From Minisyncoccota bacterium (lineage in GTDB: Bacteria; Patescibacteriota; Minisyncoccia; Phycocordibacterales; SBAW01), in contig DASZWM010000002.1 of NCBI GenBank assembly GCA_035546615.1, forward strand, positions 32,001 through 96,000: a DNA stretch of 64,000 bases, in the 5' to 3' direction. Within the stretch, counting starts at the first letter, position 1. Each line of letters opens with the position of its first letter. Of the stretch, positions 3,302 to 54,842 are shown one piece after another. Both the position numbers and the translations under genes were made by a program. A model generated the notes under the pieces. That model saw only the letters and a list, made by a program, of their open reading frames with translations, ran no database searches and had not been told where the DNA came from.

Positions 3302-3304
3302 GCG

Positions 3305-3787
3305 ATGAAACTATTTTTCTTCAAGCATAAGGAAGTCATGCGCGTGCTATTTACGGTGACAATATTCTTATTGCCAATCATAGCTCTTGGGGCAACTTCT
3401 TCGGGCGGCAATACGTTGCCCACGTCCTCCGGCGGCAACACCTTGCCGACCTCCTATGGCGGCAATACGGCAAATTCAGGCGACAACTGCGACCCCAGGG
3501 TCCAGGTATGCAACCCGCTCCAGTTCCATAGCATCTGCGGCCTGGTGACCGGCGTGTTGGATGCCATCATGGTAATCGGCATTCCGATAGCTATAATGTT
3601 CGTCGTATGGGCCGGATTTAAATTCGTCGTAGCGCAAGGCAATCCGGAATCCATTTCACAGGCTAAAACCAATTTTCTGCATGTCATCATCGGCATCGCC
3701 ATATTCGTGGGTGCTTCGCTAATCGCGCATGTCATCATGCAAACGATCGAAAATCTCGGAGTGACCGGCATTAGTTCCTGCCAATAA
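3305..3787 (+). CDS. TrbC/VirB2-like pilin family small membrane protein
   Basis: Signal peptide, SSGGNTLPTS repeats, Cys pair, then two hydrophobic helices (IPIAIMFVVWAG ... IGIAIFVGASLIAHV), the VirB2-type topology. Confidence 0.5.
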   Translation: MKLFFFKHKEVMRVLFTVTIFLLPIIALGATSSGGNTLPTSSGGNTLPTSYGGNTANSGDNCDPRVQVCNPLQFHSICGLVTGVLDAIMVIGIPIAIMFVVWAGFKFVVAQGNPESISQAKTNFLHVIIGIAIFVGASLIAHVIMQTIENLGVTGISSCQ

Positions 3788-3788
3788 T

Positions 3789-4145
3789 ATGCCGCTCACC
3801 GCCGCCGCTACGCTTTCAAACCAATCGTCGCTCAAAGATGTCGCATTATTCGCGGTGGAGATTCTCAACTCCCTGGTTCCGGTCCTCCTGGTGCTTATCC
3901 TCGTGCTCTTTCTCTGGATAGGGGTGCAGTATATCTACCGGGCCGACGGTGAGAACAAGGCCTCTACCCGGGAAGCGATTCTCTGGGGGCTTATAGCGCT
4001 ATTTGTCGCCTTCTCAGTGTGGGGAATAGTGCGCCTGGCTTGCAGCACGCTTCTTGGCACCAGCGAATGCAGTTCAGGCAGCAGCGGTGGAGGGGGAAAT
4101 GCAAACCAGGCGCCGCTCAATATCATTCCCGAATCGGCCCGCTAA
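3789..4145 (+). CDS. pilin-like small membrane protein (paralog)
   Basis: Two TM helices with the REAILWGLIALFVAFSVWGIVRL motif shared with the neighbours. Confidence 0.4.
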   Translation: MPLTAAATLSNQSSLKDVALFAVEILNSLVPVLLVLILVLFLWIGVQYIYRADGENKASTREAILWGLIALFVAFSVWGIVRLACSTLLGTSECSSGSSGGGGNANQAPLNIIPESAR

Positions 4146-4224
4146 GCTAAAAACTATCCACACGGCCGCCTTGTGCCGGAGCGCCCCGCGGCATACAGTT
4201 AAGCCATACCCATTTAATACTCGT

Positions 4225-5761: not shown

Positions 5762-7035
5762 TACGTTTCAGCTCCTTCTCTAAGTCTACGGACCTCGCGT
5801 ATGAGAGCAGCCTGTCCTGGGTCGATTTGAGCTCCACCCAGGATTACGATGCCGCCGTTCCTTCCGGCCGCTTCGGCCGCGCGAACCGTACCTTCGATCT
5901 GGGGAATGACAGTGGCGTCGGGGTATTCCTTGAGCGCTGCGCCGGTTTCCCGTATCAGTGCCGCCTGCCCCTTCGCCCGTTCGATTTGGGCATCCTTGTC
6001 CACCCGGGCTATCGCGAGGTCGCCAAGGCGAGCTCCGATAGCCGGATTTGTCGGAGTAATGTCCCGGATTTGCACCCGGACGTTCATTACGCCGAAGTCC
6101 AGCGTCGTACCGTCGGTGGTTTTTGCATCCACCGCCGGAGCCGGCTTTCCCGTGCGGGCGATGGCGTCTGCCAATTCCCGCGCCTCGTCTTCGTCCTGTG
6201 CTGATAGTACCGCGTTTAGGGAGTGCGACCTCGTGAACGCGGTTACAGCATCGGAAGTAGTAGTTAGCAGGCGGCGAGTCCAGTCATCATCCGTGTTATA
6301 GGCCGTATCGTACGGGTTGGTAACCCGCTCGATAAGGTCGACATGGATACTCACGGGAATCTTGTCCTGCGTGTCCGCCTTGGGGATGATGATGGGATAG
6401 AGGAAGTCAGCGACACGATAGTGGTCGCTATAGTCCTCGACCCGTACGAAGTCAACTTCCCCGTCCGGTCGGGTAATTTCCTTGAAGCGTTCGACCGGAT
6501 ACACGCGGATGTTCTGGAAGGGCGGGATGCCGGTGAATATGGCACCCGTGATCCAGTAGGTCCAACGCTTCCATGCCCACCAGAGAACGCTGATAGGCGA
6601 GTAGAGCAGCCAGACGAAAAAGAACCACCCGCGTTTTCTTCCCGGAAAGGGTATAGGATGAGAGTCGGTATAGCCGCCCTCGCCCGGCAGATTCGTTTCC
6701 TCCACCTTCCAATAGGCGTTATCACGCCGATGGAGGGGGTTATCTTTCTCGCCTTTGAACTTATGCCCTTCGAATGCCATGATGGCATCGACGAACCGCT
6801 GCCCGCGCTCCTTGATCTTCACCCGGCCTGGTTGCAGGTAGGTGAAAAAGCCGGCACGCGACGGCGGGTAATTCAGCTCATTGTTCCAGTCGTCCGGACG
6901 ATATTCGTTCGGGTCGTTGGTGAGCCGATCGACGGCATGCGGTATAAGCGGCAGAAGAAAGAGCACGGCAAAGATACCTGCTCCCGCCCATGCCACCCAA
7001 CCAAGTACCGTTACGAGCGTGAACAGAATTTCCAT
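5761..7035 (-). CDS. SPFH/band-7-like membrane protein (tentative)
   Basis: N-terminal TM; C-terminal region ERAKGQAALIRETGAALKE...GGIVILGG resembles stomatin/flotillin C-termini. Confidence 0.35.
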   Translation of the reverse strand: MEILFTLVTVLGWVAWAGAGIFAVLFLLPLIPHAVDRLTNDPNEYRPDDWNNELNYPPSRAGFFTYLQPGRVKIKERGQRFVDAIMAFEGHKFKGEKDNPLHRRDNAYWKVEETNLPGEGGYTDSHPIPFPGRKRGWFFFVWLLYSPISVLWWAWKRWTYWITGAIFTGIPPFQNIRVYPVERFKEITRPDGEVDFVRVEDYSDHYRVADFLYPIIIPKADTQDKIPVSIHVDLIERVTNPYDTAYNTDDDWTRRLLTTTSDAVTAFTRSHSLNAVLSAQDEDEARELADAIARTGKPAPAVDAKTTDGTTLDFGVMNVRVQIRDITPTNPAIGARLGDLAIARVDKDAQIERAKGQAALIRETGAALKEYPDATVIPQIEGTVRAAEAAGRNGGIVILGGAQIDPGQAALIREVRRLREGAET

Positions 7036-15772: not shown

Positions 15773-16873
15773 ATGCGCAATAGGGGTGCCGTACTCATAT
15801 TTGCGGGAGGGCTGCTCTTTACCCTCTTGCCGTTTATCGCCTCGGCCGCCGGGATTGTTCCATGTGGCGATACCACGGGCCTTGCGCCAGGTACTCCTCA
15901 GTATTACGCGGCCGCAACAAGTTGTCAGGCATGCAGCGTAATTCAACTGATTCAGACCCTTATTAACTTCATGATAGGACTCTCCATTCCTATCGCGATG
16001 GCGCTCTTCGCCTGGGCCGGCGTCCTGTATTTTACAGCCGCTACCAAGGAGGAGAATATATCAAAGGCAAAGAGCATTTTCCGCAGCGTATTTGTCGGAT
16101 TCATCATAGTTCTCGGCGCATACCTTATGGTAGAGACGCTCCTGCACGCCATTCTTAATCAGGATTACTTTACCGGCTGGAACAAGATCGAATGCGTTGA
16201 TAATACCAAGCGCCCAACCCAGGGCACGCTCGGTCAACTGATAAATGAAGTAATAGGCCATCCGGAAGATTCTTTAGTTGTTGGGAAGGCTCCTGTCGCG
16301 GTAAGCGATCCGTCTACATGTACCGGCAAACTGAGCTACGACAGCTCTATCAATCAGTATTACTGCTTGAATACAGTCAGCGGCATGGTCAGTCAAACAG
16401 GCTCTGGACAGTGTGCGCCCGGCAGCATACAAGCTGCTGCTGCGGCGGGAGGATATCCCATTACACCAGCACAAGCTCAGACCTTTTCCTGCCTTGCGGC
16501 TCCGGAAAGCGGTTGCCAAGGGAATCCTGGCCAAGCCAGGACGCCGACCGGCGACCCGACAAGCGCTTCCGGCCATTTTCAGATCGTCCTTGGCCTCAAT
16601 GATCAGTGTCATAATCTGAATATTCCTGCATGCACCCAGGCTGCGCAAGCAGCCGGCTATTCGGTAAGCGGGAATCTCAATTGCTCCAGCCACTTCAGGG
16701 GAGGCGTTCCTATAGACGCAGTAGGACAGGCATGCAAGGCGGCGGCAAGCAACTTTACCTGCAATGCTTCGGCTGCGGCTTGTCTGGTAACGCAGAATCC
16801 AAGCTTTAGCGACTGGACGGCGGACCCTCGCAGCAGTTCACAGAAATCATGCGTCAATACGTATAATCATTAG
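15773..16873 (+). CDS. TrbC/VirB2-like pilin domain fused to a large Cys-rich C-terminal extracellular domain
   Basis: N-terminal 130 aa paralogous to 3305..3787 (C..C, IPIAMALFAWAG, ISKAKS, two TM helices), followed by about 230 aa with many Cys/Gly/Ala/Ser. Confidence 0.5.
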   Translation: MRNRGAVLIFAGGLLFTLLPFIASAAGIVPCGDTTGLAPGTPQYYAAATSCQACSVIQLIQTLINFMIGLSIPIAMALFAWAGVLYFTAATKEENISKAKSIFRSVFVGFIIVLGAYLMVETLLHAILNQDYFTGWNKIECVDNTKRPTQGTLGQLINEVIGHPEDSLVVGKAPVAVSDPSTCTGKLSYDSSINQYYCLNTVSGMVSQTGSGQCAPGSIQAAAAAGGYPITPAQAQTFSCLAAPESGCQGNPGQARTPTGDPTSASGHFQIVLGLNDQCHNLNIPACTQAAQAAGYSVSGNLNCSSHFRGGVPIDAVGQACKAAASNFTCNASAAACLVTQNPSFSDWTADPRSSSQKSCVNTYNH

Positions 16874-20390: not shown

Positions 20391-20557
20391 GCTTTTTATG
20401 GCGGGGGGAATCGGCTACCACGTAGCCAGGTACTTTTCGATCTCGATGACTCGATAACGAAAAGTCTTTCGATTCTCCCATGGAAGCAAATCAATTTGCT
20501 TCCTCCCCGGACTCCAGACAGAAAAAGAGCCGGGCGGTAAGCCTGGCCTGTTTTCTG

Positions 20558-20644
20558 TGGTGCCGGGGGGGAGAATCGAACTCCCATGCCATTGCTGGCG
20601 CGGGATTTTGAGTCCCGTGCGTCTACCAATTCCGCCACCCCGGC
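20558..20644 (-). tRNA. tRNA-Leu(CAA) with encoded CCA
   Basis: Reverse complement GCCGGGGTGGCGGAATTGGTAGACGCACGGGACTCAAAATCCCG...GGGAGTTCGATTCTCCCCCCGGCACCA. Confidence 0.85.
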
Positions 20645-20673
20645 TTGTGTTGGCTCGTGTTAGAATATCGTTT

Positions 20674-25506: not shown

Positions 25507-28500
25507 TTACCCTTTTTCCACTTCGCTTGGCAAGCGCCCCGGCCAGCGGTACACGAGCGTCGGAATGAGAATGAGCGTCAGTATCATCGCGAAGGAAAGC
25601 CCGAAAAGAATGGCGAACGCCAGCGGCCCCCACAGGGCGGACGCGAAGGTGAGCGGTATCATGCCGATCACCGTGGTGATGGTCGTGAGGACGATGGGGC
25701 GCAGGCGCGAGGTCGCCGCCTCGACCACGATGTCGGAGAATGTGCGGCCCGCTCCCGCGTGGAGGCGCTGGAGTATGGAGTCCATGAGGATGATGGCGTG
25801 GTTGATAATGACGCCCGCGAGCGCAATGACGCCCAGAAGCGAGGAGAACGAGAGCGTCTGGCCGGTCAGCACCAGGCCGCCGAACACGCCGATGAGAGAA
25901 AGCGGGATAATGGCGAGCAGATACGTGGTGTAGCGGAATGAGTTGAAGGCAAGCACGAGAATGACGAACATAAGCGCCATGCCCGCCAACAGCGCGATAC
26001 CCATCTCGGCGAAGGACTGATTGGTCTCTTCGTTCTCGCCGCCGATAGATACCGTGACGCCCACGGGAAGCTCGACGCTCTTCATCTTCTCGTTGTACGC
26101 GGCAAGCACCGCTCCGGCGGTGTAGCCCGGCAGCGTATTGGCCGACAAGGTTACTATGCGCTCCCGGTCCTCGTGGTTGATTGTCGAGTCGTTGCGCGCC
26201 ACGCTTTCCTCAAGGAGCGAGCCGAGCAGTATCGTAGTCCCGCTCTGGGTGGTGATAGGCACCTGATGAAGCGCGTCTATGGTGGCGTTTGAGGCGTCAT
26301 GCGGGTCAATGTAGGACGGGTTTAGATTGAGAAGCACGTTTATGTCCACGTCGCGCTCGGCGCCCGAAATGGACGTTGCCTTCATGCCCGACACCGCGGT
26401 GCGCAGGGTAGAGGCCACTTGCGCGGCCGTCACGCCCGCCTGCGCGAGCCGCGAGCGGTCGATGCGAAGCTCGAACTGAACGGTCTCGTTCTTGTTTGAA
26501 GCGTCGACGCTGGTGGCGCCGGGTGTCGACTCGAGCACGCCGCGCGCGGCCGCCACCGCCGCATCCAGCGCGTCGCGGTCGGAGCCGAGGAACTTAATAA
26601 GTACGGGCGCGCCCACGGGCGGGCCGCCGGTCGGCTGGTCGGACGTTACCTTGGCGCTCCGGATGCCGGAAAGCTCTTTCCGGACTTGGCTCAGCACTTC
26701 GGTGCTGGTCTTCGAGCGGCCTTTCGGCAAATTGATGGTGAGGCTCGCAAATCGCGGATCGGACTGGGGATTGCCGCTGAATTCGCTGGTGCGGCCGACG
26801 GTCGTCACGAAGGACGCGATGTCGTGGTCGTTGTACAGCACTTCCTCCACCTGGCGCGCGACCAGATCGCTCTGATTGAGCGACGAGCCCGGCGGAAGCT
26901 CAATATCGGTATATAAAAAGTCTATGTCATCCTGCGGGAAAAAGCTCACGGGAAGCAGTCCCGCGATGGGCAGGGCGAGGGCCAGAACGAACGCGAGCGC
27001 CATGCCCCACAGGAAGCGGTTCTGGTTCTTCTTGTGATGCAGGAAGCTTTTCAGCTTCGCGGAGTACCAGGTACGCGCCGCCTCGGCGTACTCTTCCTGC
27101 TTGTCCAAGAGCCAGCCGCGCGCGCCTATCTTCTGCGAGAACATCATGGTGAGCGTCGGCACCAGCCCCAGCGCCACGAAAATGGAGGCGATGAGCACGA
27201 ATATGAGCGTGTACGGGATGCCGGCGATGAATTTGCCCACGATGCCCGAAATAAAGAAGAGCGGGAAGAACACCGCGACGGTCGTCATCGTGCCGCCGAT
27301 GAGCGGCCAAGCGTACTCGCGGAGGGCCTCGAAGGCAGCCACTTTTTTGTCGCCGAACGTGCGTATGCGGGTGTGTATGGCTTCGACGACGACGATGCCG
27401 GAGTCCACGAGGATGCCGATGGCGAGAATGAGCGAGAAGAGGGAAATAAAGTTGAGCGTGTTGCCGGTGTAGAGGAGCCCGACGAACGCGATAAGGAACG
27501 AAAGGGGAATGGAAAGGCCCGCGACTATCGCCTCGCGCCAGCCGATGGTCGCAAAGAGCACGAGCATCACGAGCACGACGGTCTCAAGCCCCGTGCGGGT
27601 AAGCTCGGTCAGGTCCTGCTGCACCTCGTCGCCGGCGTCCAGCGACACCACGACCTGGCTGCCGTCCAGAAGCCCTGCCTTGAGCGTATCAAGCCTTGCC
27701 TTCACCGCGCGGGTCACAGCGGTCACGTCCTGTCCGCGCACTTTGTATACCAAAAGGGTCATGGCCTGCTCGGAGGGCGCGCCCGCAACCGAGATGCGCG
27801 AGTAGGAGGTCGCCTTCTCGACGCCGTCGGACACGTCGGCGATATCGCGCACGTAGATGACCTGCCCGCCGACGTTCAGTATCGCCACCGAGCCGATGTC
27901 CTCGGTCGTATCGAAGCTGCCGTCGAAGGCGATATTGTAGTTGATGTCATTGACCTCGATGGAGCCCACCGGAAGCGACGAGTTCGCAGCGCCTATGGCC
28001 GCCACGACCTGGGGGAGCGAAATGCCGTAGCGCGCGAGGTCCTCCTTGCGCACGACGACGTCTATCTCGCGGTTGCGCACACCGGAGATGTCTACGCGCT
28101 GGACTCCCTTCACGGCCTGGAGCTCGTTCTGTACCTGATCGGCCAGTTCCGCCAGCTGGGCGAAGGGCTCGTTGGCGGAAATGGAGATTATCTGTATAGG
28201 CTGGTCGACGAAGTTCACGTCAGATACCGTCGGGTCCTTCGCTTCCGCCGGGAGGTCCACTTTCGCCTTATCGACCTCGTCCTTGAGCTTCTGGATGGAC
28301 TTGTCGAGGTCGGCCGACGCGAGGAACTGCACGGTCACGACCGAGATGCCGTCGCGCGATGTCGAGGTGAGCGTGTCGAGGTTCTCGATGTTGGCCAGAT
28401 GCTCTTCAAGCTTGTTAGTGACCAGGCGCTCGACGTCCTCGGCCGATGCGCCCGGAAGCACGGTCGATACGATGCCCACCGGGATGGATACTTCCGGCGC

Positions 28501-28611
28501 CGACTCCTTGGTGATGCGTACGGCCGCGAAGACGCCCGATATCGTGACCGCCGCGATGACGAGCAGGGTGAACTGGCGCTTTTCTATGAAGAATTTCCAG
28601 AATGACAGCAT
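25507..28611 (-). CDS. RND family efflux transporter permease (AcrB-like)
   Basis: 1034 aa, 12-TM RND architecture with two large periplasmic loops. Confidence 0.9.
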   Translation of the reverse strand: MLSFWKFFIEKRQFTLLVIAAVTISGVFAAVRITKESAPEVSIPVGIVSTVLPGASAEDVERLVTNKLEEHLANIENLDTLTSTSRDGISVVTVQFLASADLDKSIQKLKDEVDKAKVDLPAEAKDPTVSDVNFVDQPIQIISISANEPFAQLAELADQVQNELQAVKGVQRVDISGVRNREIDVVVRKEDLARYGISLPQVVAAIGAANSSLPVGSIEVNDINYNIAFDGSFDTTEDIGSVAILNVGGQVIYVRDIADVSDGVEKATSYSRISVAGAPSEQAMTLLVYKVRGQDVTAVTRAVKARLDTLKAGLLDGSQVVVSLDAGDEVQQDLTELTRTGLETVVLVMLVLFATIGWREAIVAGLSIPLSFLIAFVGLLYTGNTLNFISLFSLILAIGILVDSGIVVVEAIHTRIRTFGDKKVAAFEALREYAWPLIGGTMTTVAVFFPLFFISGIVGKFIAGIPYTLIFVLIASIFVALGLVPTLTMMFSQKIGARGWLLDKQEEYAEAARTWYSAKLKSFLHHKKNQNRFLWGMALAFVLALALPIAGLLPVSFFPQDDIDFLYTDIELPPGSSLNQSDLVARQVEEVLYNDHDIASFVTTVGRTSEFSGNPQSDPRFASLTINLPKGRSKTSTEVLSQVRKELSGIRSAKVTSDQPTGGPPVGAPVLIKFLGSDRDALDAAVAAARGVLESTPGATSVDASNKNETVQFELRIDRSRLAQAGVTAAQVASTLRTAVSGMKATSISGAERDVDINVLLNLNPSYIDPHDASNATIDALHQVPITTQSGTTILLGSLLEESVARNDSTINHEDRERIVTLSANTLPGYTAGAVLAAYNEKMKSVELPVGVTVSIGGENEETNQSFAEMGIALLAGMALMFVILVLAFNSFRYTTYLLAIIPLSLIGVFGGLVLTGQTLSFSSLLGVIALAGVIINHAIILMDSILQRLHAGAGRTFSDIVVEAATSRLRPIVLTTITTVIGMIPLTFASALWGPLAFAILFGLSFAMILTLILIPTLVYRWPGRLPSEVEKG

Positions 28612-28628: not shown

Positions 28629-30158
28629 TTACTGCGCTACTTCTACCGTTTCCCTCGCGCGCAGGCCCCGGGCGTCCGTGACTATCAGCATGTCGGGAGT
28701 GGCGCCGTCGAGTATGACCACGCGGTCGCCGAGCAGCTCGCCTATCGTTACTGTATGCGCCACGAGCATATTGTTCGCGTCCACCGTAAAGACGCTCATG
28801 CCGCCCTGGCCAATCTTAAGCGCCGCAAGGGGAATGACGAGGCGCGCGGGAGCGGCGGCCGTGGCGGCGTTTTGCGCGCGGGCAAGCTCGACCGTGACCG
28901 ACTGGCCGTTGATGAGAGCGGTCGCGGAGCCGCTGATGCCGACGCGCACCTCTATTTTCTTGGTGACGGGGTCAATGGCGGGCGCGATGCGGGTTATGAC
29001 GCCGTCTGCCGAGCCGCCGAGCTTCGCCTTGCCGCCTACCGCAAGCTGGCGGGCGTCGGATTCGGTGACATAGGCTACCACTTCAAGCGCGCCGTTGTTG
29101 GCTACCGTAAGGACCGCGGAGCCGAGCTGGACGTAGTCGCCGCGCTTCAGCGACAGGGAATTGATAGTGCCGGAAATGGGGGCGCGGATGAGCGTATGCT
29201 CAAGGTTGGCGCGCGCGGAGGCGAGGCCCGCCTGGGCCTGCTTTACCGCCGCGGCGCTGACCGAGGCGTTTGCGCCGGTGCCCGCGATGCTCTGGCGGGC
29301 GCTGCCGAGCGCGGTTATGGAGGCGGTCACGGCCGTGCGCGCCGCGATAGTGGCAGCCTTATAGCCGTCCAGCACCGATGCGGTCACGACCTCGTCGGGC
29401 TCGCCGGCGTTAAGCGCGCGCAGGAGGGCATCGAGGAAGTTGCGCACCTGCTGGAGCTCGGCTTCGGTTTGAGCAAGCTCGCCGCTTTGGTCTGAGGCGG
29501 AAGAGATCTGCGCCGATGCGGCCTTCTGCCTGTCGAGCGCGGCATCGAGCGCGCTGCGCAGGCTTTCGGCCTCGCGTTTGGAGGCGGAATCTTCCGTCTT
29601 TACGCGCAGGTAATACGTGTGCGGCGTGGTATCCGGATTGATGAACATAGGGTCCGCCGCGTTGTGCACCGCGTTGTCTGCCGCCGCGTAGGCGGAGAGG
29701 AGCGCGCTTGCGGCGCTGGTGCCTGAAATGCCGGCGGAGGCCTGCGCCGCCTCGACGCCGGCCTGCGCCTGGAGCACCGCCGCGCGCTCGGACGCGTTCT
29801 CGACTTCCGCTACCACCGCGCCCGCGCCGACGTAGTCGCCGAGCTGGTAGTTGAGCGAGGTAATCTCGCCGGATTTCTCCGCGCGCACGGTAGCCTCGGA
29901 CTTGGAGCTCACGGTGCCCGCTACCGAAAGCCCGGAGGTCTGGTTGGAAAGGTCGGCGATGGAGCGCAGCTCAACGCTGCGGGTATTGTTCGGCGCCGCC
30001 GCTTCGGAAGCGCCGCCTGAGAACGCCGCGTGGAGGACGATAAGCAGGACGACCAGAACGCCCGCCCCCGCGGCGAGTTTTTTCCAGCCCAGACGCTTGG
30101 CTGTACGGGTCAGATACGAAACGAAGTCCTGGAGGCGCGCGAAAATAGATTGCAACAT
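28629..30158 (-). CDS. efflux RND periplasmic adaptor (membrane fusion protein, HlyD family)
   Basis: N-terminal TM, biotinyl/lipoyl-like hairpin (SGEITSLNYQLGDYV), long coiled coils, beta-barrel C-terminus. Confidence 0.8.
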   Translation of the reverse strand: MLQSIFARLQDFVSYLTRTAKRLGWKKLAAGAGVLVVLLIVLHAAFSGGASEAAAPNNTRSVELRSIADLSNQTSGLSVAGTVSSKSEATVRAEKSGEITSLNYQLGDYVGAGAVVAEVENASERAAVLQAQAGVEAAQASAGISGTSAASALLSAYAAADNAVHNAADPMFINPDTTPHTYYLRVKTEDSASKREAESLRSALDAALDRQKAASAQISSASDQSGELAQTEAELQQVRNFLDALLRALNAGEPDEVVTASVLDGYKAATIAARTAVTASITALGSARQSIAGTGANASVSAAAVKQAQAGLASARANLEHTLIRAPISGTINSLSLKRGDYVQLGSAVLTVANNGALEVVAYVTESDARQLAVGGKAKLGGSADGVITRIAPAIDPVTKKIEVRVGISGSATALINGQSVTVELARAQNAATAAAPARLVIPLAALKIGQGGMSVFTVDANNMLVAHTVTIGELLGDRVVILDGATPDMLIVTDARGLRARETVEVAQ

Positions 30159-30167
30159 ATGAAAATA

Positions 30168-30419
30168 TTATCTGTTCTTCTTAATAATACCCTGAATGAC
30201 GTTGAGCCGCTTGGACAGGTGGGTGGCGAACTTCTCGACGCCCGATAGCTTCGCGAAGGTCACCATCTCGCCGCCCATGCCGAACACAAGCAGTTTCTGG
30301 CCCTTCTTGAGGCCCATCGCCTCGCGGGCGTCCGCGGGAATGACTATCTGGCCCTTTTCGCCCAAGGTCGTGATGCCGTATATCTTCTCCGCGGGGTGGT
30401 GAGCATGGTTCTTAAGCAT
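30168..30419 (-). CDS. AbrB/MazE/SpoVT family DNA-binding protein
   Basis: Swapped-hairpin motif GEKGQIVIPADAREAMGLKKGQKL; first gene of the efflux operon. Confidence 0.65.
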   Translation of the reverse strand: MLKNHAHHPAEKIYGITTLGEKGQIVIPADAREAMGLKKGQKLLVFGMGGEMVTFAKLSGVEKFATHLSKRLNVIQGIIKKNR

Positions 30420-30507
30420 AGTATGAAATGTATTACTTTTCCTACACTGTACCGCAGGAAGGCCGTGCGGTCAATGAAGGCTTACGTGGCGTAAAAAATG
30501 CCCCGCG

Positions 30508-30535
30508 CGACTATGAGTCGCGCGGGGTGATGTTG
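30508..30535 (-). terminator. intrinsic terminator 3' of the gcrA-like gene
   Basis: Minus-strand ccccgcgcgactcatagtcgcgcgggg followed by a T-run. Confidence 0.45.
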
Positions 30536-30542
30536 TCTGGGC

Positions 30543-31070
30543 CTAGTAGGCCCCATACTGCGGATTGACCGGCGTTGCGGCCTGCCGTCCATAATGCGCG
30601 TGATAGAGGCAATACTGATTCCTTTTTCCTCCCGTATCCGCGCCGCAGTACAGCGCGGGGCTCGTTTCCGTCTGGTCGCGCACGATAGTGTGACACATCC
30701 CTTCCTCAACCTGCAGGAGCGTCACGTTGATGCTCTTCGGTTGCGGGATTTCCATGACGGCACGGGGCAGCGCAGCCTGCCGCGCGGCTTCCGGATGCAG
30801 CTTGGGCGGCTCGCGCCTTGCTTTTATCCGTAACCGCATGAGCGCGGCATTGTTTGTTGAGCCTGTTCGCGGTTTGCGCGGCCGGGCCTGGCTGGGTGCG
30901 GGCTTCGGCCGTCCGGAAAGGTTGAGACGGTGGATTTTTCCAATGACGGCATTCGCCGTAACTCCGCCCAGCTGGGCGGCTATCTGGCTTTTGGAAAATC
31001 CCTCGCTCCAGAGCTTTTTGAGCAATTCAATGCGCTCGTCCGTCCAGCCATGATTCTTGGTAGAACCCAT
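30543..31070 (-). CDS. GcrA-family cell-cycle regulator-like protein
   Basis: N-terminus WTDERIELLKKLWSEGFSKSQIAAQLGGVTANAVIGKIHRLNLSGR and C-terminal Cys/His block (MCHTIV...YCGADTGGKRNQYCLYHAHY) match the GcrA (PF07750) pattern; 175 aa. Confidence 0.6.
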   Translation of the reverse strand: MGSTKNHGWTDERIELLKKLWSEGFSKSQIAAQLGGVTANAVIGKIHRLNLSGRPKPAPSQARPRKPRTGSTNNAALMRLRIKARREPPKLHPEAARQAALPRAVMEIPQPKSINVTLLQVEEGMCHTIVRDQTETSPALYCGADTGGKRNQYCLYHAHYGRQAATPVNPQYGAY

Positions 31071-31123
31071 AGGCTTTTACTCCTTGTACTGATAGTGGAA
31101 CAAATGTCCTGTCCTTACTATAA

Positions 31124-31984
31124 CTATGTCCGTACTATCTTGCCAAGACGCTCTTCTACGAGCCCGCGGATCTGCAGCGATGAAAGCGCGATGTTCGCTT
31201 CCTGAGCGGAAAGCCCCGCGCGCTCAATAAGCTCGTCTTTTTCGAGTGCTTCGGCCAATGCCTCGAGTATTTTCGCTTCGGCAGGCGTCAGATCGGACGG
31301 GAAGGAGGCTTCCGCAGCATCTTCGACTTTCAGTCCGAGCGCTTCAAGAATATCTTCGCTGTTGCGAACGAGCGTTGCGCCTTCGCGAATCAGCCGGTTG
31401 ACGCCCGCGCCGCTCTCGCGCCCCAGCTCGTGCGGCACGGCGAGCACTTCGCGGTTGTAGTCAAGCGCGAGCCGCGCGGTAATAAGCGTGCCGGACTTTT
31501 CTCCCGCTTCTATTATGAGCGTGGCAAGCGCCATGCCGGCCCCGATGCGGTTTCGCTTGGCGAAATCGAACAGCTGGGGCCGGTAGGGGCCGGGATTCTC
31601 GCTTACGAGCGCGCCGCCCTTCTCAAGTATCCGCTGCGCCAGCCCGCGGTTGCTTGCGGGATATATAGAAGAGTCATCGCATGAGGAGGGGAGCACCGCT
31701 ACGGTTGCCAGCCCGGCATCGAGCGCCGCCTTGTGCGCTTCGGCGTCTATGCCTAAAGCGAGGCCCGAGACTATCGCGACCGGATACCGCGCTAGCCCCG
31801 CGATAAGCGCTTGGCACATACGCCTTCCATATATAGACGTAGCGCGCGAGCCCACGACGCACAGGAGCTTGTACTCGGGCGGGGGAAGTTCGCCGCGTAG
31901 GTACAGCATTTTCGGCTTGTCCGGAATTTCCCTCAAAAGGTCGGAAAATCCGTCAGGCGGCAGTTGTCGGATAGGGAAAGCCAT
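31124..31984 (-). CDS. dprA: DNA processing protein DprA (SMF family)
   Basis: Rossmann-like GSR...VSGLALGID and C-terminal winged-helix region. Confidence 0.85.
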   Translation of the reverse strand: MAFPIRQLPPDGFSDLLREIPDKPKMLYLRGELPPPEYKLLCVVGSRATSIYGRRMCQALIAGLARYPVAIVSGLALGIDAEAHKAALDAGLATVAVLPSSCDDSSIYPASNRGLAQRILEKGGALVSENPGPYRPQLFDFAKRNRIGAGMALATLIIEAGEKSGTLITARLALDYNREVLAVPHELGRESGAGVNRLIREGATLVRNSEDILEALGLKVEDAAEASFPSDLTPAEAKILEALAEALEKDELIERAGLSAQEANIALSSLQIRGLVEERLGKIVRT

Positions 31985-32009
31985 TGTATTCTATGGATAT
32001 TCTGAACAT

Positions 32010-33281
32010 ATGTTAGATATCACGTTCATCCGCGAGAATCTAGAGCTCGTGAAGGCCGGCGCCAAGAAGAAGCATATCGAGGTCGACCTCGACCGGCTCA
32101 TGTCCGTGGACGAAAAGCGCCGCGCGCTCCTGGTGGAGATAGAGACCATGCGCGCCAAGCAGAACGAGGTGTCCGACATGGTGGTCAAGGCGAGCCCCGA
32201 GGAAAAAGAAAAGGCTATCGGCGAAATGCGGGTGCTCAAGGAGACGCTTCAGGGCAAAGAGAAGGAAATGGAGGAGGTGATGCATGAATGGCAGCTCCTT
32301 ATGGTGGCGGTGCCGAACATTCCGGATTTGTCAGTGCCCGACGGCGACTCCGACGCGGACAATAAAGAGGTGAAGGTGTGGGGCGGAAAGCCGCAGTTCG
32401 CTTTTACCCCGAAGAGCCACGTCGAATTGATGCAGGACCTCGAGATGGCGGACTTCGAGCGCGGCACCAAGGTCGCCGGATTCCGCGGCTACTTCCTCAA
32501 GGGCGACGGGGCGCTCTTATCTTTCGCTATCTGGCGCTACGCGCAGGATTTTTTCCTGAAAAAGGATTTTACGCCGATGATAGTGCCGAGTTTGGTAAAG
32601 CGCGTCGCATTTTTGGGCAGCGGGTACCTGCCCCAGGGCGAGGACGACCTGTATAAGACGCAGGACGGCGATTTTTTGGCCGGCACCGCGGAAGTGGCGA
32701 CGATGGGGTACTACATGAACGAAGTATTGCCGAAAGAAAAACTGCCGATGAAATTCCTTTCCTTCTCGCCGTGCTTCAGGCGCGAGGCGGGCGCGCACGG
32801 CAAGGACGTCAAAGGCCTTATCCGGGTACACGAATTCTTCAAATGGGAGCAGGTCATCGTGTGCGAGGGCACGCATGAGGAGTCGGTCAAATGGCACGAA
32901 TGGGTGAATCGCAACACGGAAGAGTTCATCGAGTCGCTTGAGATCCCGTACCACACGGTGCTCAACTGTGGCGGTGACCTCGGGCTGGGCCAGGTAAAAA
33001 AGTATGACATCGAGCTGTGGGTGCCGGGCGAGAATACGTATCGCGAGATAAGCTCGGCCTCGTACTTCCATGACTTCCAGACCCGCCGTCTTAACATCCG
33101 CTATCGCGACGAGAACGGAAAGATGCAGTACTCGCATTCGCTTAATTCCACCGCCATTCCGACTCCGCGTATCCTCGTGTCTTTGATAGAGAATTACCAG
33201 CAGGAAGACGGCTCCATCCTCATCCCGAAAGCCCTGCAGCAGTACATGGGCAAGGAAAAAATAGAAAAAGCGAAAGCGTAA
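32010..33281 (+). CDS. serS: seryl-tRNA synthetase
   Basis: N-terminal coiled coil and class II core motifs (FRREAGAHGKD, GLGQ); 423 aa from the ATG at 32010. The track ORF from 31650 is an upstream extension overlapping dprA. Confidence 0.9.
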   Translation: MLDITFIRENLELVKAGAKKKHIEVDLDRLMSVDEKRRALLVEIETMRAKQNEVSDMVVKASPEEKEKAIGEMRVLKETLQGKEKEMEEVMHEWQLLMVAVPNIPDLSVPDGDSDADNKEVKVWGGKPQFAFTPKSHVELMQDLEMADFERGTKVAGFRGYFLKGDGALLSFAIWRYAQDFFLKKDFTPMIVPSLVKRVAFLGSGYLPQGEDDLYKTQDGDFLAGTAEVATMGYYMNEVLPKEKLPMKFLSFSPCFRREAGAHGKDVKGLIRVHEFFKWEQVIVCEGTHEESVKWHEWVNRNTEEFIESLEIPYHTVLNCGGDLGLGQVKKYDIELWVPGENTYREISSASYFHDFQTRRLNIRYRDENGKMQYSHSLNSTAIPTPRILVSLIENYQQEDGSILIPKALQQYMGKEKIEKAKA

Positions 33282-38890: not shown

Positions 38891-38961
38891 TGCCCGATCG
38901 TCTAATGGTAGGACAGAGGCCTTTGAAGCCTTTAATTGGGGTTCGAATCCCTGTCGGGCAG
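38891..38961 (+). tRNA. tRNA-Gln(TTG)
   Basis: TGCCCGATCGTCTAATGGTAGGACAGAGGCCTTTGAAGCCTTTAATTGGGGTTCGAATCCCTGTCGGGCAG; U1-A72 pair as in bacterial tRNA-Gln. Confidence 0.8.
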
Positions 38962-38992
38962 CAAATGTAGCGAAGCGTAATTTGCGCCCGAA

Positions 38993-39185: not shown

Positions 39186-40859
39186 ATGCCGTATTCGACT
39201 GATATGTCAGTGTATTTAGATTTGGGCGGCGCTTTAGCTGCTTTTGGCCTTTTATTTACTGTTTACCAACTTCGGCGACCAAGGTGGGAGGTAATTTTGC
39301 GAATTAGAAATAATTGGCAAAGTGATATTTTCTGGATATTAGGTTTTATAGGTTTGTTTTATGCCCTAGTTGGCGTGCTTGTATCTGAACTCCCAATTAA
39401 TTCTTTCAACTTTCCGTTTAATACCCCATTACTTTACGAGGTGGCAGCGTACCTATCGTTTGTAGCTTCACCTCTGTCATTAATATATTTTGCGACCAAT
39501 GACAAAAAGTTATTTAACGCAAAAACTGCAGAAACTTTCTACGAAGTAATCTTGCAAGAAATTTCTAAATCTAGTGATGTAAACCTAGATGCGGCATTGG
39601 AAATAGTCTTGAGAAACTTTAATGAAATTTGTGATGCAACTCTTCAAAATACAGATAAAGATTTGCGCTCATACGCAAGGTCAATTTTAGACGTTGTACT
39701 AAGTGACGAGTCTGTAGTAAAAGTGCTCACTACCAAGAGGCTTGATGCTTTGCAATATATCTTTTATTTAATAAAGGAAAAGAATATCACTCGTGCTCAT
39801 TCGGGGATAGGTATACCGAGAATTGTAAATAATCTTTTCTTTGACGAAAATTCCTTCCTCTATAAACAACTCGATAGAAAAGGGTTGGCACTTTCATCAA
39901 ATATATACACGAGCATTTTTGAATCTCCAGTTATACTCACCAACTTTGATCTGTTTGGGTACCCGACTATCGGTTATGGAATGAGTAGAGATACTGGCAA
40001 TGCTGGTATAAGAGTATTTATCAAAGCCTTATCTCTAAGCATTGAAACTTACTTTAAAACAGGGAGCGTGCCTCCGAGGCACATTAATAATGGGTTGTCT
40101 TACTTAAGCAATATATTTGGAGGGTTGTGTGCAAAAATTGCCATCAAAGAAAATAAAGGTGTTGATACTAAATCTAGTTTAGAAGATGAGTGGTGGGGCT
40201 TACATCAAATAGCCTCCTTTTTAGGACATGATTATATTTTTCTTGCCTATGAAGAAAAACTAAATCAGCAAGTTCTGGAAAACGAAAAAACTGCCCATGA
40301 GGCTCGATTTGGCTCAAATGCAACTATAAATGAGGGTATTGCAGCTGTTATCTATAAAGCTTTTGAGCAGCTTTCACAAATTAAAAAAACCACAGACATA
40401 TATCATACAGTTCTGGAGCTCTTGCATGGAATGATGAATGAGCCTACCTACAAGGAAGGTTATAGACCGCCTTTTGAAAAGAGACTCTGGCAACAAATCG
40501 GTGCAAATGTTGCTAAACGTTATTATCCTGCCGTCGTTAGAACGTATTTAACCTTTGTTGGGTTCTGTCTTGGCGCAGATGCAAACCAACGACAAGGTTG
40601 GATTGGCGAACAAGCGGAACGTATGAGACGACTTTTGTATATTGACCTTAAGCCTTTATTTGATAAGAATGAAAAAATGATAAATAAGGAATTTATGAAA
40701 GACGTTTTGCTCCCAGATTCCATGTCCTATAAAGATGGTAAATTTACTTATACCTCTGGATTCGGAGAAGGTACAACCACTGAAGTAGCACCACCCCCTG
40801 AGGGTGCGACATCAGGTTTGGAAGGAATAGATTTAGAGAGTATGCCTCACTTCGTCTAG
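39186..40859 (+). CDS. hypothetical membrane protein (AT-rich island gene 1; 557 aa)
   Basis: Three N-terminal TM helices and a large soluble domain with no recognizable family. Codon usage and GC clearly differ from the flanks. Confidence 0.5.
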   Translation: MPYSTDMSVYLDLGGALAAFGLLFTVYQLRRPRWEVILRIRNNWQSDIFWILGFIGLFYALVGVLVSELPINSFNFPFNTPLLYEVAAYLSFVASPLSLIYFATNDKKLFNAKTAETFYEVILQEISKSSDVNLDAALEIVLRNFNEICDATLQNTDKDLRSYARSILDVVLSDESVVKVLTTKRLDALQYIFYLIKEKNITRAHSGIGIPRIVNNLFFDENSFLYKQLDRKGLALSSNIYTSIFESPVILTNFDLFGYPTIGYGMSRDTGNAGIRVFIKALSLSIETYFKTGSVPPRHINNGLSYLSNIFGGLCAKIAIKENKGVDTKSSLEDEWWGLHQIASFLGHDYIFLAYEEKLNQQVLENEKTAHEARFGSNATINEGIAAVIYKAFEQLSQIKKTTDIYHTVLELLHGMMNEPTYKEGYRPPFEKRLWQQIGANVAKRYYPAVVRTYLTFVGFCLGADANQRQGWIGEQAERMRRLLYIDLKPLFDKNEKMINKEFMKDVLLPDSMSYKDGKFTYTSGFGEGTTTEVAPPPEGATSGLEGIDLESMPHFV

Positions 40860-40861
40860 AT

Positions 40862-41419
40862 ATGAATCCAAACATTTGGTTTTACACTTTTAGTACAGCA
40901 GCCCAAGTAATGGCGGCTTTGGCCGGTTTATTTGCAGTATTTGTTGTATATAAGATTCAAGATTTTAGTCAGCTTATAAAAGACGCCCGCTCTAGTCTGT
41001 CCCGGTTGATTCCATACAATTCAGCGAATACGGGCGGAGATACAATCTCTAAGCAGGAAGTATTAGATATGACTGATAGAGAATTGGTTACTACGCTTGC
41101 CGAGTTGTTAGTACTTGAGACATCTCAGAATGGAGCGTTCTTTAGCGGACATTCAGAAACTATAGATGGCACAACGATAGCTGTAAACTCGAATACCTAC
41201 GACTATTTCGCAGCCCTTGTTGATAAAAAGGAAAGAATACTAAAACGTCTGATTTTTGTCTTGGGTTTAAGTTTAGGAACTATTTGTGTTTGTCTAGTAT
41301 CATTGGTGCTAATTGACGTGTTATCAAAGTTTGAGTGGTTTATTTGGATGTGTTTGGCTTTATTTATATACACCCTTTGGACAATCGGAATGGATATTTA
41401 CAAGATAACCCTAGAGTAA
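40862..41419 (+). CDS. hypothetical membrane protein (island gene 2)
   Basis: One N-terminal and two C-terminal TM helices; starts 3 nt after gene 1. Confidence 0.45.
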   Translation: MNPNIWFYTFSTAAQVMAALAGLFAVFVVYKIQDFSQLIKDARSSLSRLIPYNSANTGGDTISKQEVLDMTDRELVTTLAELLVLETSQNGAFFSGHSETIDGTTIAVNSNTYDYFAALVDKKERILKRLIFVLGLSLGTICVCLVSLVLIDVLSKFEWFIWMCLALFIYTLWTIGMDIYKITLE

Positions 41420-41428
41420 TCTTTCTCT

Positions 41429-41752
41429 ATGAAAGGAATAATTATCGAAAATAGTCTCAAAGACAAAAGTATTATCACCGAAGCTGAAATTATTCGAACT
41501 TGGGAAGATGGAAGTTGGAAGTTGCGGGAGGTAAAAGTTTCAACAGAATGGGCTGAAAAATTTGGAGGATACTTAAATGATGGACCCTGGTATGTTCACT
41601 TTTGGGAATCCGACAGCGACGATGTACTAGTAGTATTTAAAGACAAAAGCTTCTGGATCAAACATTCGGACAAGAATACTTGGCAAGATGCTATTGCTCA
41701 TGGAAAGTCGTTACATATACCCGTGGAGCAATTAGACTTTCCTATTGATTGA
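41429..41752 (+). CDS. hypothetical soluble protein (island gene 3, 107 aa)
   Basis: ORF only; AT-rich. Confidence 0.4.
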   Translation: MKGIIIENSLKDKSIITEAEIIRTWEDGSWKLREVKVSTEWAEKFGGYLNDGPWYVHFWESDSDDVLVVFKDKSFWIKHSDKNTWQDAIAHGKSLHIPVEQLDFPID

Positions 41753-41790
41753 GATTTCGATTTCTCCCTTTTATATTATATAATCAAGAT

Positions 41791-42174
41791 ATGAAGTATT
41801 TGCTAATCACGGCTTTATTTTTGGTTGTCTTTGTGTTTGCTACTCCAGCAAAGGCCGCACCATTAACCCAATCCCAAGTAAATGCAATAATTACTATTAT
41901 GCAGTCTTTCGGTGTAGATAGTGCTACGATTTTAAATATCAAAACAACACTCTCTAATTCGACTTCCGCTAAGGTAGAATCCGTCGTCAAAACTACTTTT
42001 AAAGGAGTTCCTACCTACGCACAAGTGAAAAGAGAGTTAGCAAAATCACGCAATAAGGAGGTGACTTATATGGAGAATGGATGTGTATACTCAATAAACC
42101 ATTTAGTGAGTGAACATATTTTCAAAACACGCGATATGAGTATTCGCGATCTTGCATCTGGAGCAAGTTGTTAG
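41791..42174 (+). CDS. hypothetical secreted protein (island gene 4)
   Basis: Signal peptide MKYLLITALFLVVFVFATPAKA. The track start at 41749 would overlap gene 3. Confidence 0.4.
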   Translation: MKYLLITALFLVVFVFATPAKAAPLTQSQVNAIITIMQSFGVDSATILNIKTTLSNSTSAKVESVVKTTFKGVPTYAQVKRELAKSRNKEVTYMENGCVYSINHLVSEHIFKTRDMSIRDLASGASC

Positions 42175-53855: not shown

Positions 53856-54680
53856 CTACCTGACCACGGCCCTCTTCTGCCGTATGTTGGCCTCCATGTT
53901 CGCTATTTCCGCGTCGAATGCCGGATCGTTCGACCGGCGCAGCTTCACCACGTTCACGCTATGGAGAATGGTCTTTGAATCCCGGTCCCCGAAGTAGGAG
54001 GACATCTTCGCATAGATCATGCCGGTCATGGACCTCACCAAAAAAATCGCGACGTGACGCGCGAGCCGGTATCTGCCGACCTTGATATCGGATTCAAGAT
54101 CGGAAACCGTTACGTCATAGTGCAGGGCAACAGTTTCCTTTATCAGCGTGATGAGGTCTTCCTCGTCCTCCGTGTTTTTCTGGCTCTCGAGTACCGCCTC
54201 AATCCCGTCGAAGCTCTCGAGAACGACAGGCGCTGCTGAGAGCGGCTGTGCAGCCGGCTTTTCAGAAGATGCGTCTTCAGGAGTATCCTCCCGGGGCGGC
54301 GGCTTAGCCTTCGCCTCGGTCTTGGGGTTTTTTGTCGCAGCGGCCTTTTTGGCGGCTTCTTGCGCAGCCGTGGCCGCTTGATAGATGCGGCCCTTTTGCG
54401 TCGCGATGCTGCGCACCGCAACCAGCACCTCCGTCACGCCGTTGCGCTCTGCCTGCCAGGCGGCAAGCAGGCGCGCGCGATAGATGTCGAGTATCTGTCT
54501 GCGCAGGCCCGCTACGGGGACGCTGACACTGACGGTTGCCTGCGTTATTCCTTCAAGTTCCATTCGCCGGAAGAAGGCACTGAAGGCATCCTCGCCCAGA
54601 TCCTTTTTCAGGCGTTCCTGCACGCGCGACCACTGCTTTGCCGCGTTCGTGCCTTCCCCCACGGGGGTTTGAGCATCCAT
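53856..54680 (-). CDS. DnaA-like protein with DnaA N-terminal domain I and C-terminal DNA-binding domain IV but no AAA+ domain
   Basis: N-terminus WSRVQERLKKDLGEDAFSAFF..MEL (domain I pattern); C-terminus LARHVAIFLVRSMTGMIYAKMSSYFGDRDSKTILHSVNVVK (domain IV FGGRDHTTV-like). ATG at 54680 with a GGAG RBS; only 274 aa. Confidence 0.55.
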   Translation of the reverse strand: MDAQTPVGEGTNAAKQWSRVQERLKKDLGEDAFSAFFRRMELEGITQATVSVSVPVAGLRRQILDIYRARLLAAWQAERNGVTEVLVAVRSIATQKGRIYQAATAAQEAAKKAAATKNPKTEAKAKPPPREDTPEDASSEKPAAQPLSAAPVVLESFDGIEAVLESQKNTEDEEDLITLIKETVALHYDVTVSDLESDIKVGRYRLARHVAIFLVRSMTGMIYAKMSSYFGDRDSKTILHSVNVVKLRRSNDPAFDAEIANMEANIRQKRAVVR

Positions 54681-54842
54681 CCCTATACTCCTTTTGCCTC
54701 TTAGGCGCCCCAAGGCGCGAAAACAAAATCCAAATACACTTAAACACATCCTCCTGGATTTTCAAGTGAATGGGGCAGGGCAGATTGACAATATCCGTTC
54801 TATTATATATAATCATAAGCGACTGAATCTCTTTTAGTCGTT

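Follow-up and report, generated by a model that had tools for sequence, protein, structure and literature searches.

GcrA is regarded as a regulator of the Alphaproteobacteria and their phages that acts together with CcrM methylation. Here we describe a gcrA-family gene in a 64,000-nucleotide stretch of DNA (positions 32,001 to 96,000 of contig DASZWM010000002.1, assembly GCA_035546615.1; hereafter the window) from a bacterium of the Patescibacteria, within the candidate phyla radiation (CPR). We consider it reasonably probable that an alphaproteobacterium related to the Hyphomicrobiales was the donor of this gene, and that it was then domesticated and remodelled while retaining a role as a sigma cofactor. 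What, then, is new? Databases already label the protein as a member of the GcrA family; to this we add the recognition of a CPR-type variant, which lacks Arg33 and the basic patch and has a rebuilt sigma-docking domain, a fixed locus adjacent to dprA, a series of forms running from canonical through intermediate to remodelled, and evidence of repeated transfer from Hyphomicrobiales-like donors. No paper was found that mentions GcrA together with Patescibacteria or CPR. The gene and its parts are as follows.

30543..31070, minus strand: gcrA-family gene encoding CPR-type GcrA, 175 aa (open reading frame (ORF) call, PF07750 score, identical NCBI protein)
31047..31070, minus strand: N-terminal extension MGSTKNHG, 8 residues, preceding the conserved Trp (alignment)
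30909..31046, minus strand: DNA-binding domain (DBD), residues 9-54, three-helix helix-turn-helix (HTH) (alignments, AlphaFold against 5YIV_A)
30735..30908, minus strand: disordered, Arg/Lys/Pro-rich linker, residues 55-112 (AlphaFold predicted local distance difference test, pLDDT)
30576..30734, minus strand: C-terminal CCCH zinc domain, residues 113-165, with C126, C142, C154 and H157 (alignment, fold comparison)
30543..30575, minus strand: non-basic C-terminal tail, ATPVNPQYGAY plus stop, in place of the canonical RRR basic patch (sequence comparison)
31117..31146, minus strand: promoter-like element TTGGCA-18 nt-TATAGT (10/12 consensus match)
31080..31085, minus strand: ribosome-binding site AAGGAG, 9 nt 5' of the ATG (direct sequence reading)
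30491..30527, minus strand: intrinsic terminator of gcrA, 12-bp stem with 10 G-C pairs, 3-nt loop and T-run

The first-pass annotation of this DNA had recognised a GcrA homologue, and by its sequence the gene is a clear member of the family: the Pfam profile PF07750 (GcrA) matches positions 3-147 of 155 at 114 bits (E = 1.1e-32), with a gathering cutoff of 26.9 bits. An identical protein is deposited at NCBI as 'GcrA family cell cycle regulator [Candidatus Paceibacterota bacterium]', and the only solved structures with sequence matches are Caulobacter GcrA entries, 7YE1, 5YIU and 5YIV being the best. The protein scores 105.3 bits against the NCBIfam equivalog NF050816 (cell cycle sigma 70 cofactor GcrA), below the curated cutoff of 280 bits, and therefore should not be called a functional equivalog of alphaproteobacterial GcrA. 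Translation starts at the ATG at 31068-31070. The -10-like hexamer of the promoter-like element is kept in all five gcrA-bearing CPR lineages, and the -35 part falls within the last dprA codons, where its conservation is confounded by DprA coding. A terminator belonging to the gene itself had been predicted and is indeed present, its stem and T-run spanning 30527-30501 on the minus strand. The GC content at third codon positions (GC3) of gcrA is 0.69, and that of neighbouring genes 0.7-0.8.

The proposed N-terminal match to GcrA held up well. The window DBD is 72% identical to that of Caulobacter GcrA and up to 87% identical to alphaproteobacterial DBDs, and its AlphaFold model (pLDDT ~95) superposes on 5YIV_A with a template-modelling (TM) score of 0.93 and a root-mean-square deviation of 0.4 Å. 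Our reference structures, all of Caulobacter crescentus GcrA, were 5YIV and 5YIW for the DBD on DNA, 5YIX for the sigma-interacting domain (SID) on sigma70 domain 2, and 7YE1 and 7YE2 for transcription activation complexes. Caulobacter residues W3, W15, N34, I37, G38, K39, H41 and R42 are all conserved, and the DNA-contact residues read N40, I43, G44, K45, H47 and R48 in window numbering. The position of Caulobacter Arg33 is occupied by Ala39 in the window protein, by Ala in its homologue P0002 and by Asn in P0242; R33 is kept in 116 of 120 database hits and in 81 of 85 fetched loci. In Caulobacter, R33 hydrogen-bonds twice with the GANTC guanine, stacks against the T before it and forms one side of the first N6-methyladenine (m6A) pocket (PMC5887438). 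The 8-residue N-terminal extension has equal length in all three closest CPR homologues, and canonical GcrAs begin 1-2 residues ahead of the Trp. On this residue pattern, the N-terminal domain would bind the major groove of double-stranded DNA as a monomer, with the same recognition helix as Caulobacter GcrA; the retained Asn, Ile, Gly, Lys, His and Arg would leave the second m6A pocket and the contact to the opposite-strand G intact, and the first methyl pocket would be weakened by the loss of Arg33. Because Arg33 is lost, the protein probably prefers a relaxed or altered motif and probably depends less, or not at all, on GANTC methylation of the CcrM type.

The window protein belongs to a small and distinctive group. 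In a profile search of 5.8 billion clusters, it scores 284-314 bits together with P0242 and P0002, and all other sequences reach at most 151 bits. Of 446 family proteins, only five sequence types show the signature [ED]xG[MQ]C...CGx[PD]T[GS]G[KA]RxxYCxxH, each of them from a CPR-like context: these three (the trio), the intermediate form P0282/P0447 and the tandem-DBD form P0263. The intermediate form keeps R33 and a C-H-W-P motif, has the X9/X11 zinc-motif spacing and a PTSGAR insertion, and lacks the basic tail. P0282 scores 103.9 bits and P0263 109.5 bits in the exhaustive search, no higher than ordinary alphaproteobacterial GcrAs. P0263 is encoded at 2937-4193 of locus L116, in a low-GC (0.38), CPR-like genome, and combines two tandem DBDs with a CPR-type zinc domain; its gene and a following HNH endonuclease are inserted between initiation factor 2 (IF-2) and a class-V aminotransferase, an interval syntenic with 8.4-14.6 kb of the window.

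Is the gene maintained as a functional one? Between the window and locus L002, which encodes P0002, the DBD has a ratio of nonsynonymous to synonymous substitution rates (dN/dS) of 0.18, the SID one of 0.20 and the linker one of 0.38; among comparison genes the ratio is 0.16 for DprA, 0.28 for the membrane-fusion protein (MFP), 0.12 for the resistance-nodulation-division (RND) transporter and 0.07 for TopA, all values being approximate, as dS is close to saturation. The linker is thus the fastest-evolving part of GcrA, and GcrA the fastest-changing protein at the locus (51% identity between window and L002, against 93% for TopA). These ratios indicate that both structured domains are under purifying selection and, with the conserved -10 element, the ribosome-binding site and the terminator, that the gene is maintained as functional. 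The alignments indicate a rebuilt zinc-domain surface, the new form of which the CPR homologues preserve.

The genomic setting of the gene is equally specific. The neighbours discussed below are these.

31124..31984, minus strand: dprA, upstream neighbour of gcrA (TIGR00732 202 bits against a cutoff of 191, synteny)
30168..30419, minus strand: AbrB/MazE-like small DNA-binding protein, between gcrA and the efflux genes (Pfam/NCBIfam)
28629..30158, minus strand: HlyD-like MFP (Pfam)
25507..28611, minus strand: RND transporter (Pfam)
32010..33281, plus strand: SerRS, one gene away from gcrA

The first-pass annotation had placed the gene between dprA and an efflux operon, which is right as to dprA upstream and efflux genes downstream and overlooked the small AbrB/MazE-like gene that intervenes before the latter. 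It had also assigned the DNA to a reduced-genome lineage outside the Alphaproteobacteria, and this we could confirm: the contig is patescibacterial (Paceibacterota, Kaiserbacteria-like). The database label of the identical protein names Paceibacterota, the named relatives of the window SerRS are from Ca. Kaiserbacteria and the Patescibacteria group (73-79% identity), with dozens of unnamed relatives at 80-86%, and the gene content of the window is CPR-like, including a truncated IF-2 of 506 aa, a DnaX of 358 aa, pilins with PF18895, many peptidoglycan hydrolases and few metabolic genes. The contig has a GC content of ~58%, which is high for CPR.

In five CPR lineages gcrA lies directly downstream of dprA, and a close relative, L092, is without it. 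The gene orders are as follows.

Window: DprA-GcrA-AbrB-like-MFP-RND
L002-L004, protein P0002: DprA-GcrA-MFP-RND-TopA
L094 (GCA_035546075.1), protein P0242: DprA-GcrA-MFP-RND
L117 and a 35-kb JGI contig, proteins P0447/P0282: DprA-GcrA-TopA
L090/L091, protein P0448: DprA-GcrA-orf108-TopA
L092/L093: DprA-G6PD-TopA, gcrA absent

The junctions recur across assemblies made independently, from different samples and by different pipelines (Logan, JGI, NCBI), and an independent Logan assembly shows the same order of SerRS, DprA, GcrA and AbrB-like gene as the window. By TopA and DprA identity the lineages fall into group A (window, L002, L094) and group B (L117, L090), with L092 as outgroup. TopA differs by 7-15% among the five and is 93% identical between window and L002. 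L090 and the window share 86% identity in SerRS, 86% in TopA and 71-73% in DprA, and DprA of L117 and L090 is 80% identical. The MFP and RND genes downstream of gcrA are common to the three closest lineages (window, L002 and L094), the window proteins being 86% (RND) and 67-71% (MFP) identical to those of L002 and L094; the AbrB/MazE-like gene is absent from the gcrA-efflux position in L002 and L094, and the content of the dprA-topA interval varies between lineages. SerRS was tried as a proxy for relatedness and rejected as misleading, as L002 and L094 carry a xenologous SerRS (35% identical), for which reason relatedness was judged by TopA and DprA. With the SerRS of L090 and L092 the window enzyme shares 83-86% identity, and with that of L002 (7776-9065) and L094 (2278-3594) 34-35%; as TopA (93%) and RND (86%) mark L002 as the closest relative, this mismatch points to a xenologous SerRS replacement in one group at the same position. 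No match to GVTANAVIGK, the recognition-helix pattern with the R33A change, was found in 185,579 GTDB species-representative genomes, nor did CPR-specific peptide patterns yield a confirmed relative there, which places these lineages outside those representatives.

Where did the gene come from? Horizontal acquisition, one of the options raised in the first-pass annotation, is the best explanation. The nearest non-CPR homologues, at 46-47% identity, stand in argD-gcrA contexts with hslO, argF and phoU-phoB nearby, a setting classic for Hyphomicrobiales; those that carry a name are from Bauldia, Bartonella, Chelativorans and Phyllobacterium. At E <= 1e-3 the GcrA family comprises ~15,700 representative clusters, the great majority of which conform to the canonical type of the Alphaproteobacteria, and the 80 loci of a metagenome scan, which served as our control set, were all canonical (R33, CxW, basic tail). 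The predominance of canonical sequences, the Hyphomicrobiales contexts and the distance of the phage homologues together set the direction of transfer as from Alphaproteobacteria to CPR. An ancestor of a small clade of Kaiserbacteria-like Patescibacteria would have acquired gcrA from a Hyphomicrobiales-like alphaproteobacterium, after which the gene would have been passed on mostly vertically, fixed in the dprA-topA slot and kept functional.

The L090 lineage adds a second episode to this history. Its protein, P0448 (180 aa), is fully canonical, with R33, CKWPNGDP, FNFCG, AYQP and RRRAR. Its identity to GcrA of Chelativorans/Phyllobacterium is 57% (71-76% in the SID), as against 34% to the window protein and 29-34% across the trio. 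In neighbour-joining trees (DBD plus SID, 97 columns, 117 sequences, 200 bootstraps) it groups with the trio in 0 of 200 bootstraps and tends toward the Chelativorans-like sequences. Since L117, the sister of L090, has the intermediate CPR-type form, the simplest history is an older acquisition that gave rise to the CPR type; the L090 lineage would later have acquired the gene anew or had it replaced in situ. The canonical, Phyllobacteriaceae-like gcrA of L090 (6489-7031, minus strand) is accompanied by a Cys-rich ORF of 108 aa with a signal peptide (orf108; 6136-6462, minus strand), which matches no Pfam family, and the two may be a co-transferred block.

Does the window protein still work with CcrM, as GcrA does in Alphaproteobacteria? 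A Pfam scan of the ~54 window ORFs, covering 64 kb of genome, found no DNA methyltransferase, and the sole SAM-dependent enzyme, at 1379-1990, is of the small-molecule type. A six-frame scan of seven CPR loci found no ORF with the beta-class catalytic motif ([DNS]PP[YFW] with motif I). The observed/expected ratio (O/E) of GANTC is 0.96 both in the window and in the pooled CPR loci, and 0.67 by the identical calculation in 422 kb of alphaproteobacterial gcrA loci; the latter value reproduces the published genome-wide, CcrM-linked depletion of GANTC, which is accompanied by intergenic enrichment (PMC3973325). Between genes, GANTC shows a marginal excess (24 against 16.2, p = 0.049), less than that of the control motif AGNCT. 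Together with the replacement of R33 by Ala, these results argue against a CcrM-type regime in the window genome, and a partnership with CcrM finds no support within the 64 kb. The sole GANTC near gcrA sits in its terminator stem. The Caulobacter GcrA box (YGAKTCG), considered as a candidate site at the locus, occurs 24 times scattered over the window and 0 times upstream of gcrA, dprA or MFP, and was rejected.

Another motif shows a different pattern. GATC is strongly under-represented in the window (O/E 0.49 against a maximal-order Markov expectation), in L094 (0.53) and in L002 (0.73), and is not depleted in the related L090, L092 and L116 (0.87-0.97); the GATC-depleted genomes are those that carry an R33-less GcrA. 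The depletion could reflect a GATC-specific restriction system, or coincidence.

The C-terminal half of the protein is where the CPR type departs most from what is known of GcrA, and here the question is whether the link to sigma persists. The linker has pLDDT values of 41-60 over residues 51-100 (below 50 at 58-64, 68-88 and 91-96), and the values are ~70 over residues 101-110, rising toward the C-terminal domain. The CCCH ligands are invariant in a 92-sequence alignment. The first-pass annotation had described the C-terminal Cys/His block as matching the family closely; the block is present, with all four ligands, and the word closely was too strong, given a changed spacing and ~25% identity to the Caulobacter SID. 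The window motif is C-X15-C-X11-C-X2-H and the canonical one C-X14-C-X9/10-C-X2-H; X14/X10 is found in 196 sequences, X15/X11 in the window, and X9/X11 in P0002, P0242 and P0282. In an AlphaFold model, the window SID superposes on 5YIX_B with a TM score of 0.67 at 25% identity, and the Tyr ahead of the third Cys is retained. The C-K-W-P-x-G-D-P loop is altered in the window protein and deleted in three relatives. The tail, GRQAATPVNPQYGAY, has 1 basic residue in its last 15, as against 5-8 in canonical proteins, whose C-terminal basic patch contacts the non-template strand and helps to stabilise the open complex in Caulobacter (PMC9976885).

We infer a sigma-cofactor mechanism from these sequence features along the following lines. 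In the alphaproteobacterial protein the zinc domain docks on a coiled coil that links sigma70 regions 1.2/2.1 with the lineage-specific non-conserved region (PMC5887438). Of all parts of sigma, this non-conserved region is the likeliest to differ between phyla. In the window protein, a disordered basic linker of ~60 residues would tether the DBD to the CCCH zinc domain, the surface of which would have been re-adapted to the primary sigma factor of the Patescibacteria, and the protein would act as a sigma-tethered, promoter-selective activator that does without an open-complex-stabilising basic patch.

Several observations weigh against this account of capture, remodelling and continued sigma binding. 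W120, G129, F130, F132, Y142 and Y151 of Caulobacter GcrA are each required for sigma70 binding, a single Ala/Asp substitution at any of them abolishing it (PMC5887438), and of these six the window protein keeps Y142 alone (as Y153) and has a conservative Tyr for F132; elsewhere W120 is changed to Thr, G129 to Pro, F130 to Ala and Y151 to Arg. Canonical sequences make up most of the alignment underlying the AlphaFold model, which may have biased the fold match of the SID, and there is no rpoD in the window or in any fetched locus with which to compare sigma surfaces. As for the history, the neighbour-joining trees leave the CPR-type clade unresolved (the trio and P0263 together in 47 of 200 bootstraps, all five types in 5 of 200), so that common ancestry of the CPR type rests on rare shared indels, motifs and synteny; the canonical L090 copy in the same slot implies more than one transfer, and CPR-type genes may also have moved between CPR lineages. 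Lastly, the methyltransferase search spans 64 kb of genome, and a CcrM-like enzyme may be encoded elsewhere.

The most serious alternative follows from the first of these points, and we regard it as possible though the less attractive reading: the zinc domain may no longer bind sigma, leaving a stand-alone DNA-binding protein (a repressor or nucleoid-associated factor) or one with a new partner. Changes at four of the six essential interaction residues, the alteration or deletion of the W-P-x-G-D-P loop, the loss of the basic patch and the missed NF050816 cutoff (105 against 280) all speak for it. However, the CCCH ligands have been kept, as have the Tyr preceding the third Cys and the general fold as predicted; the new surface is conserved and under purifying selection, as expected of a maintained protein-protein interface, whichever the partner; and the layout of DBD, long linker and zinc domain, which is sensible only for tethering, is kept in all five lineages. 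The option that GcrA-like sigma70 cofactors are more widely distributed than assumed is borne out only as far as a handful of related CPR lineages have the gene, and is weakened by the sigma-contact residues, which are mostly not conserved.

A phage origin, also suggested by the first-pass annotation, fares much worse, and it is improbable that gcrA is the cargo of a recently landed phage or mobile element. GcrA-like genes do occur in phiCbK-like Caulobacter phages (PMC3556154), and GcrA DBDs in phage-like multi-domain proteins such as P0114 (L089, 410-1288), which lies on a phage-like contig of small unannotated ORFs; moreover, the distant low-GC relative L116 has its CPR-type copy at another locus beside an HNH endonuclease, and the content of the dprA-topA interval varies. 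Yet no phage, integrase or transposase genes flank the window gcrA, its composition is host-like, the same slot is filled in five lineages whose TopA differs by 7-15%, and the best viral identities (at most 34% for deposited phages and 41% over the full length for IMG/VR contigs) are lower than those of the cellular alphaproteobacterial homologues. Apart from this, P0241, P0244, P0249 and others consist of 2 to ~12 repeated GcrA-type DBDs without a zinc domain (292-714 aa), and tblastn matches to the GcrA DBD in Lactobacillus/Lacticaseibacillus and Synechococcus phages indicate that the DBD alone has spread well beyond the Alphaproteobacteria.

It is still less probable that GcrA is ancestral or widespread in Patescibacteria and was never transferred. 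At least six CPR-like contigs carry GcrA-family genes, but only three clusters stand out above 151 bits in the profile search, the recognition-helix peptide is unmatched in the species-representative genomes, the close relative L092 is without the gene, P0263 and P0282 score as ordinary alphaproteobacterial GcrAs do, and the family at large is overwhelmingly canonical. An assembly or binning artefact, in which an alphaproteobacterial gene or contig was joined to a CPR genome, might be suspected from the alphaproteobacterial affinity of the closest non-CPR homologues and the high GC content, and is refuted by synteny: gcrA has CPR-type genes to either side, assemblies made independently show the same junctions, the flanking SerRS, DprA, TopA and RND have their closest relatives in the same CPR clade, and identity to any alphaproteobacterial sequence among 5.8 billion proteins is at most 47%.

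Comparison with known systems sets transfer and remodelling in relief. Like Caulobacter GcrA (173 aa, against 175 in the window), the window protein has a three-helix DBD, a disordered linker of ~60 residues and a CCCH zinc domain. Unlike it, it has Ala in place of R33, an 8-residue N-terminal extension, a zinc-motif spacing of 15/11 rather than 14/9, changed sigma-contact residues and no basic patch, and its host is a patescibacterium in which GANTC is not depleted and no CcrM was seen over 64 kb. With the Hyphomicrobiales proteins it shares its best full-length identity (46-47%; up to 87% in the DBD) and a recognition helix of the GGVT-x-NAVIGK-x-HRL-x-LSGR type, whereas the Hyphomicrobiales genes lie next to argD, hslO and argF in genomes of ~2 Mb or more, and their products all have R33, C-K/R-W-P-x-G-D-P, A-Y/F-Q-P and an RRR tail. 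The L090/L091 gene occupies the same slot downstream of dprA and has orf108 beside it where the window has the efflux operon. The GcrA-like proteins of phages (phiCbK-like; PHROG 16311 and 12262) share the Pfam family and the two-domain layout, are 30-34% identical to the window protein, have Caulobacter as hosts and show that GcrA genes move horizontally. RbpA of Actinobacteria and GrgA of Chlamydia offer a functional analogy only: both are small, attach to the coiled-coil bridge of the primary sigma factor that GcrA uses and contribute further DNA contacts (PMC5887438), and neither is related to the window GcrA in sequence or fold.

We can also venture a bolder version, which we put forward as a speculation with rather long odds: that episymbiotic Patescibacteria captured GcrA at least twice in the same dprA-adjacent slot and refitted its sigma-docking domain to a very different primary sigma factor, with the DNA and methyl readout possibly shifted to another methylated motif. 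R33-less GcrA coincides in the three genomes with GATC depletion (O/E 0.49-0.73, against 0.87-0.97). If repeated capture and refitting were borne out, this would be the first sigma-tethered m6A reader outside the Alphaproteobacteria and a natural experiment in which a sigma cofactor was transplanted between phyla. Gene flow on more than one occasion would also make Hyphomicrobiales candidate hosts or close partners of these CPR bacteria. GcrA has in any event been kept stably in members of a phylum whose genomes are tiny and contain few regulators. The canonical, intermediate and fully remodelled interfaces, found in sister lineages, are natural variants that may tell how a sigma cofactor is refitted to a foreign RNA polymerase, and the CPR protein offers a test of GcrA-type m6A reading without CcrM. 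The trace of gene flow from Hyphomicrobiales to CPR lies beside the competence gene dprA and may help to identify the partners of these organisms.

Other features of the window deserve mention. The AbrB/MazE-type gene at 30168-30419 (minus strand), of the SpoVT/AbrB fold, is solitary, without a toxin partner, and occurs in the window lineage only. The pilin arrays noticed in the first-pass annotation are real, PF18895 (type IV secretion-type) pilin domains being present in several genes at 3305-4145 and 15773-16873. A protein of 297 aa encoded at 53856-54749 (minus strand) combines a DnaA N-terminal domain with the C-terminal DNA-binding HTH of DnaA and has no AAA+ ATPase module.

The sole compositionally foreign DNA of the window lies at 39.2-42.2 kb, where four consecutive ORFs of 557, 185, 107 and 141 aa (39186-42174, plus strand) directly follow tRNA-Gln (38891-38962). 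Their GC content is 0.38-0.45 and their GC3 ~0.32, against 0.7-0.8 elsewhere in the window, and the region looks like a tRNA-adjacent foreign island. It was considered as a source of a restriction-modification system or methyltransferase, an idea rejected when the four ORFs gave zero matches in Pfam, PADLOC and PHROGs.

Six GANTC sites fall within ~200 bp upstream of parB (20400-20650). As a regulatory array this cluster (20408-20610) was likewise rejected, as two of its sites lie in a tRNA-Leu and one in a tRNA-like fragment; the tRNA-Leu (20558-20644) accounts for it, together with an inverted 12-nt repeat of its T-arm (20468-20479), a tRNA fragment that may be the scar of an old integration. 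The GTG annotated as the start of parB (20557) overlaps this tRNA-Leu, and the true start is therefore probably downstream, near 20676.

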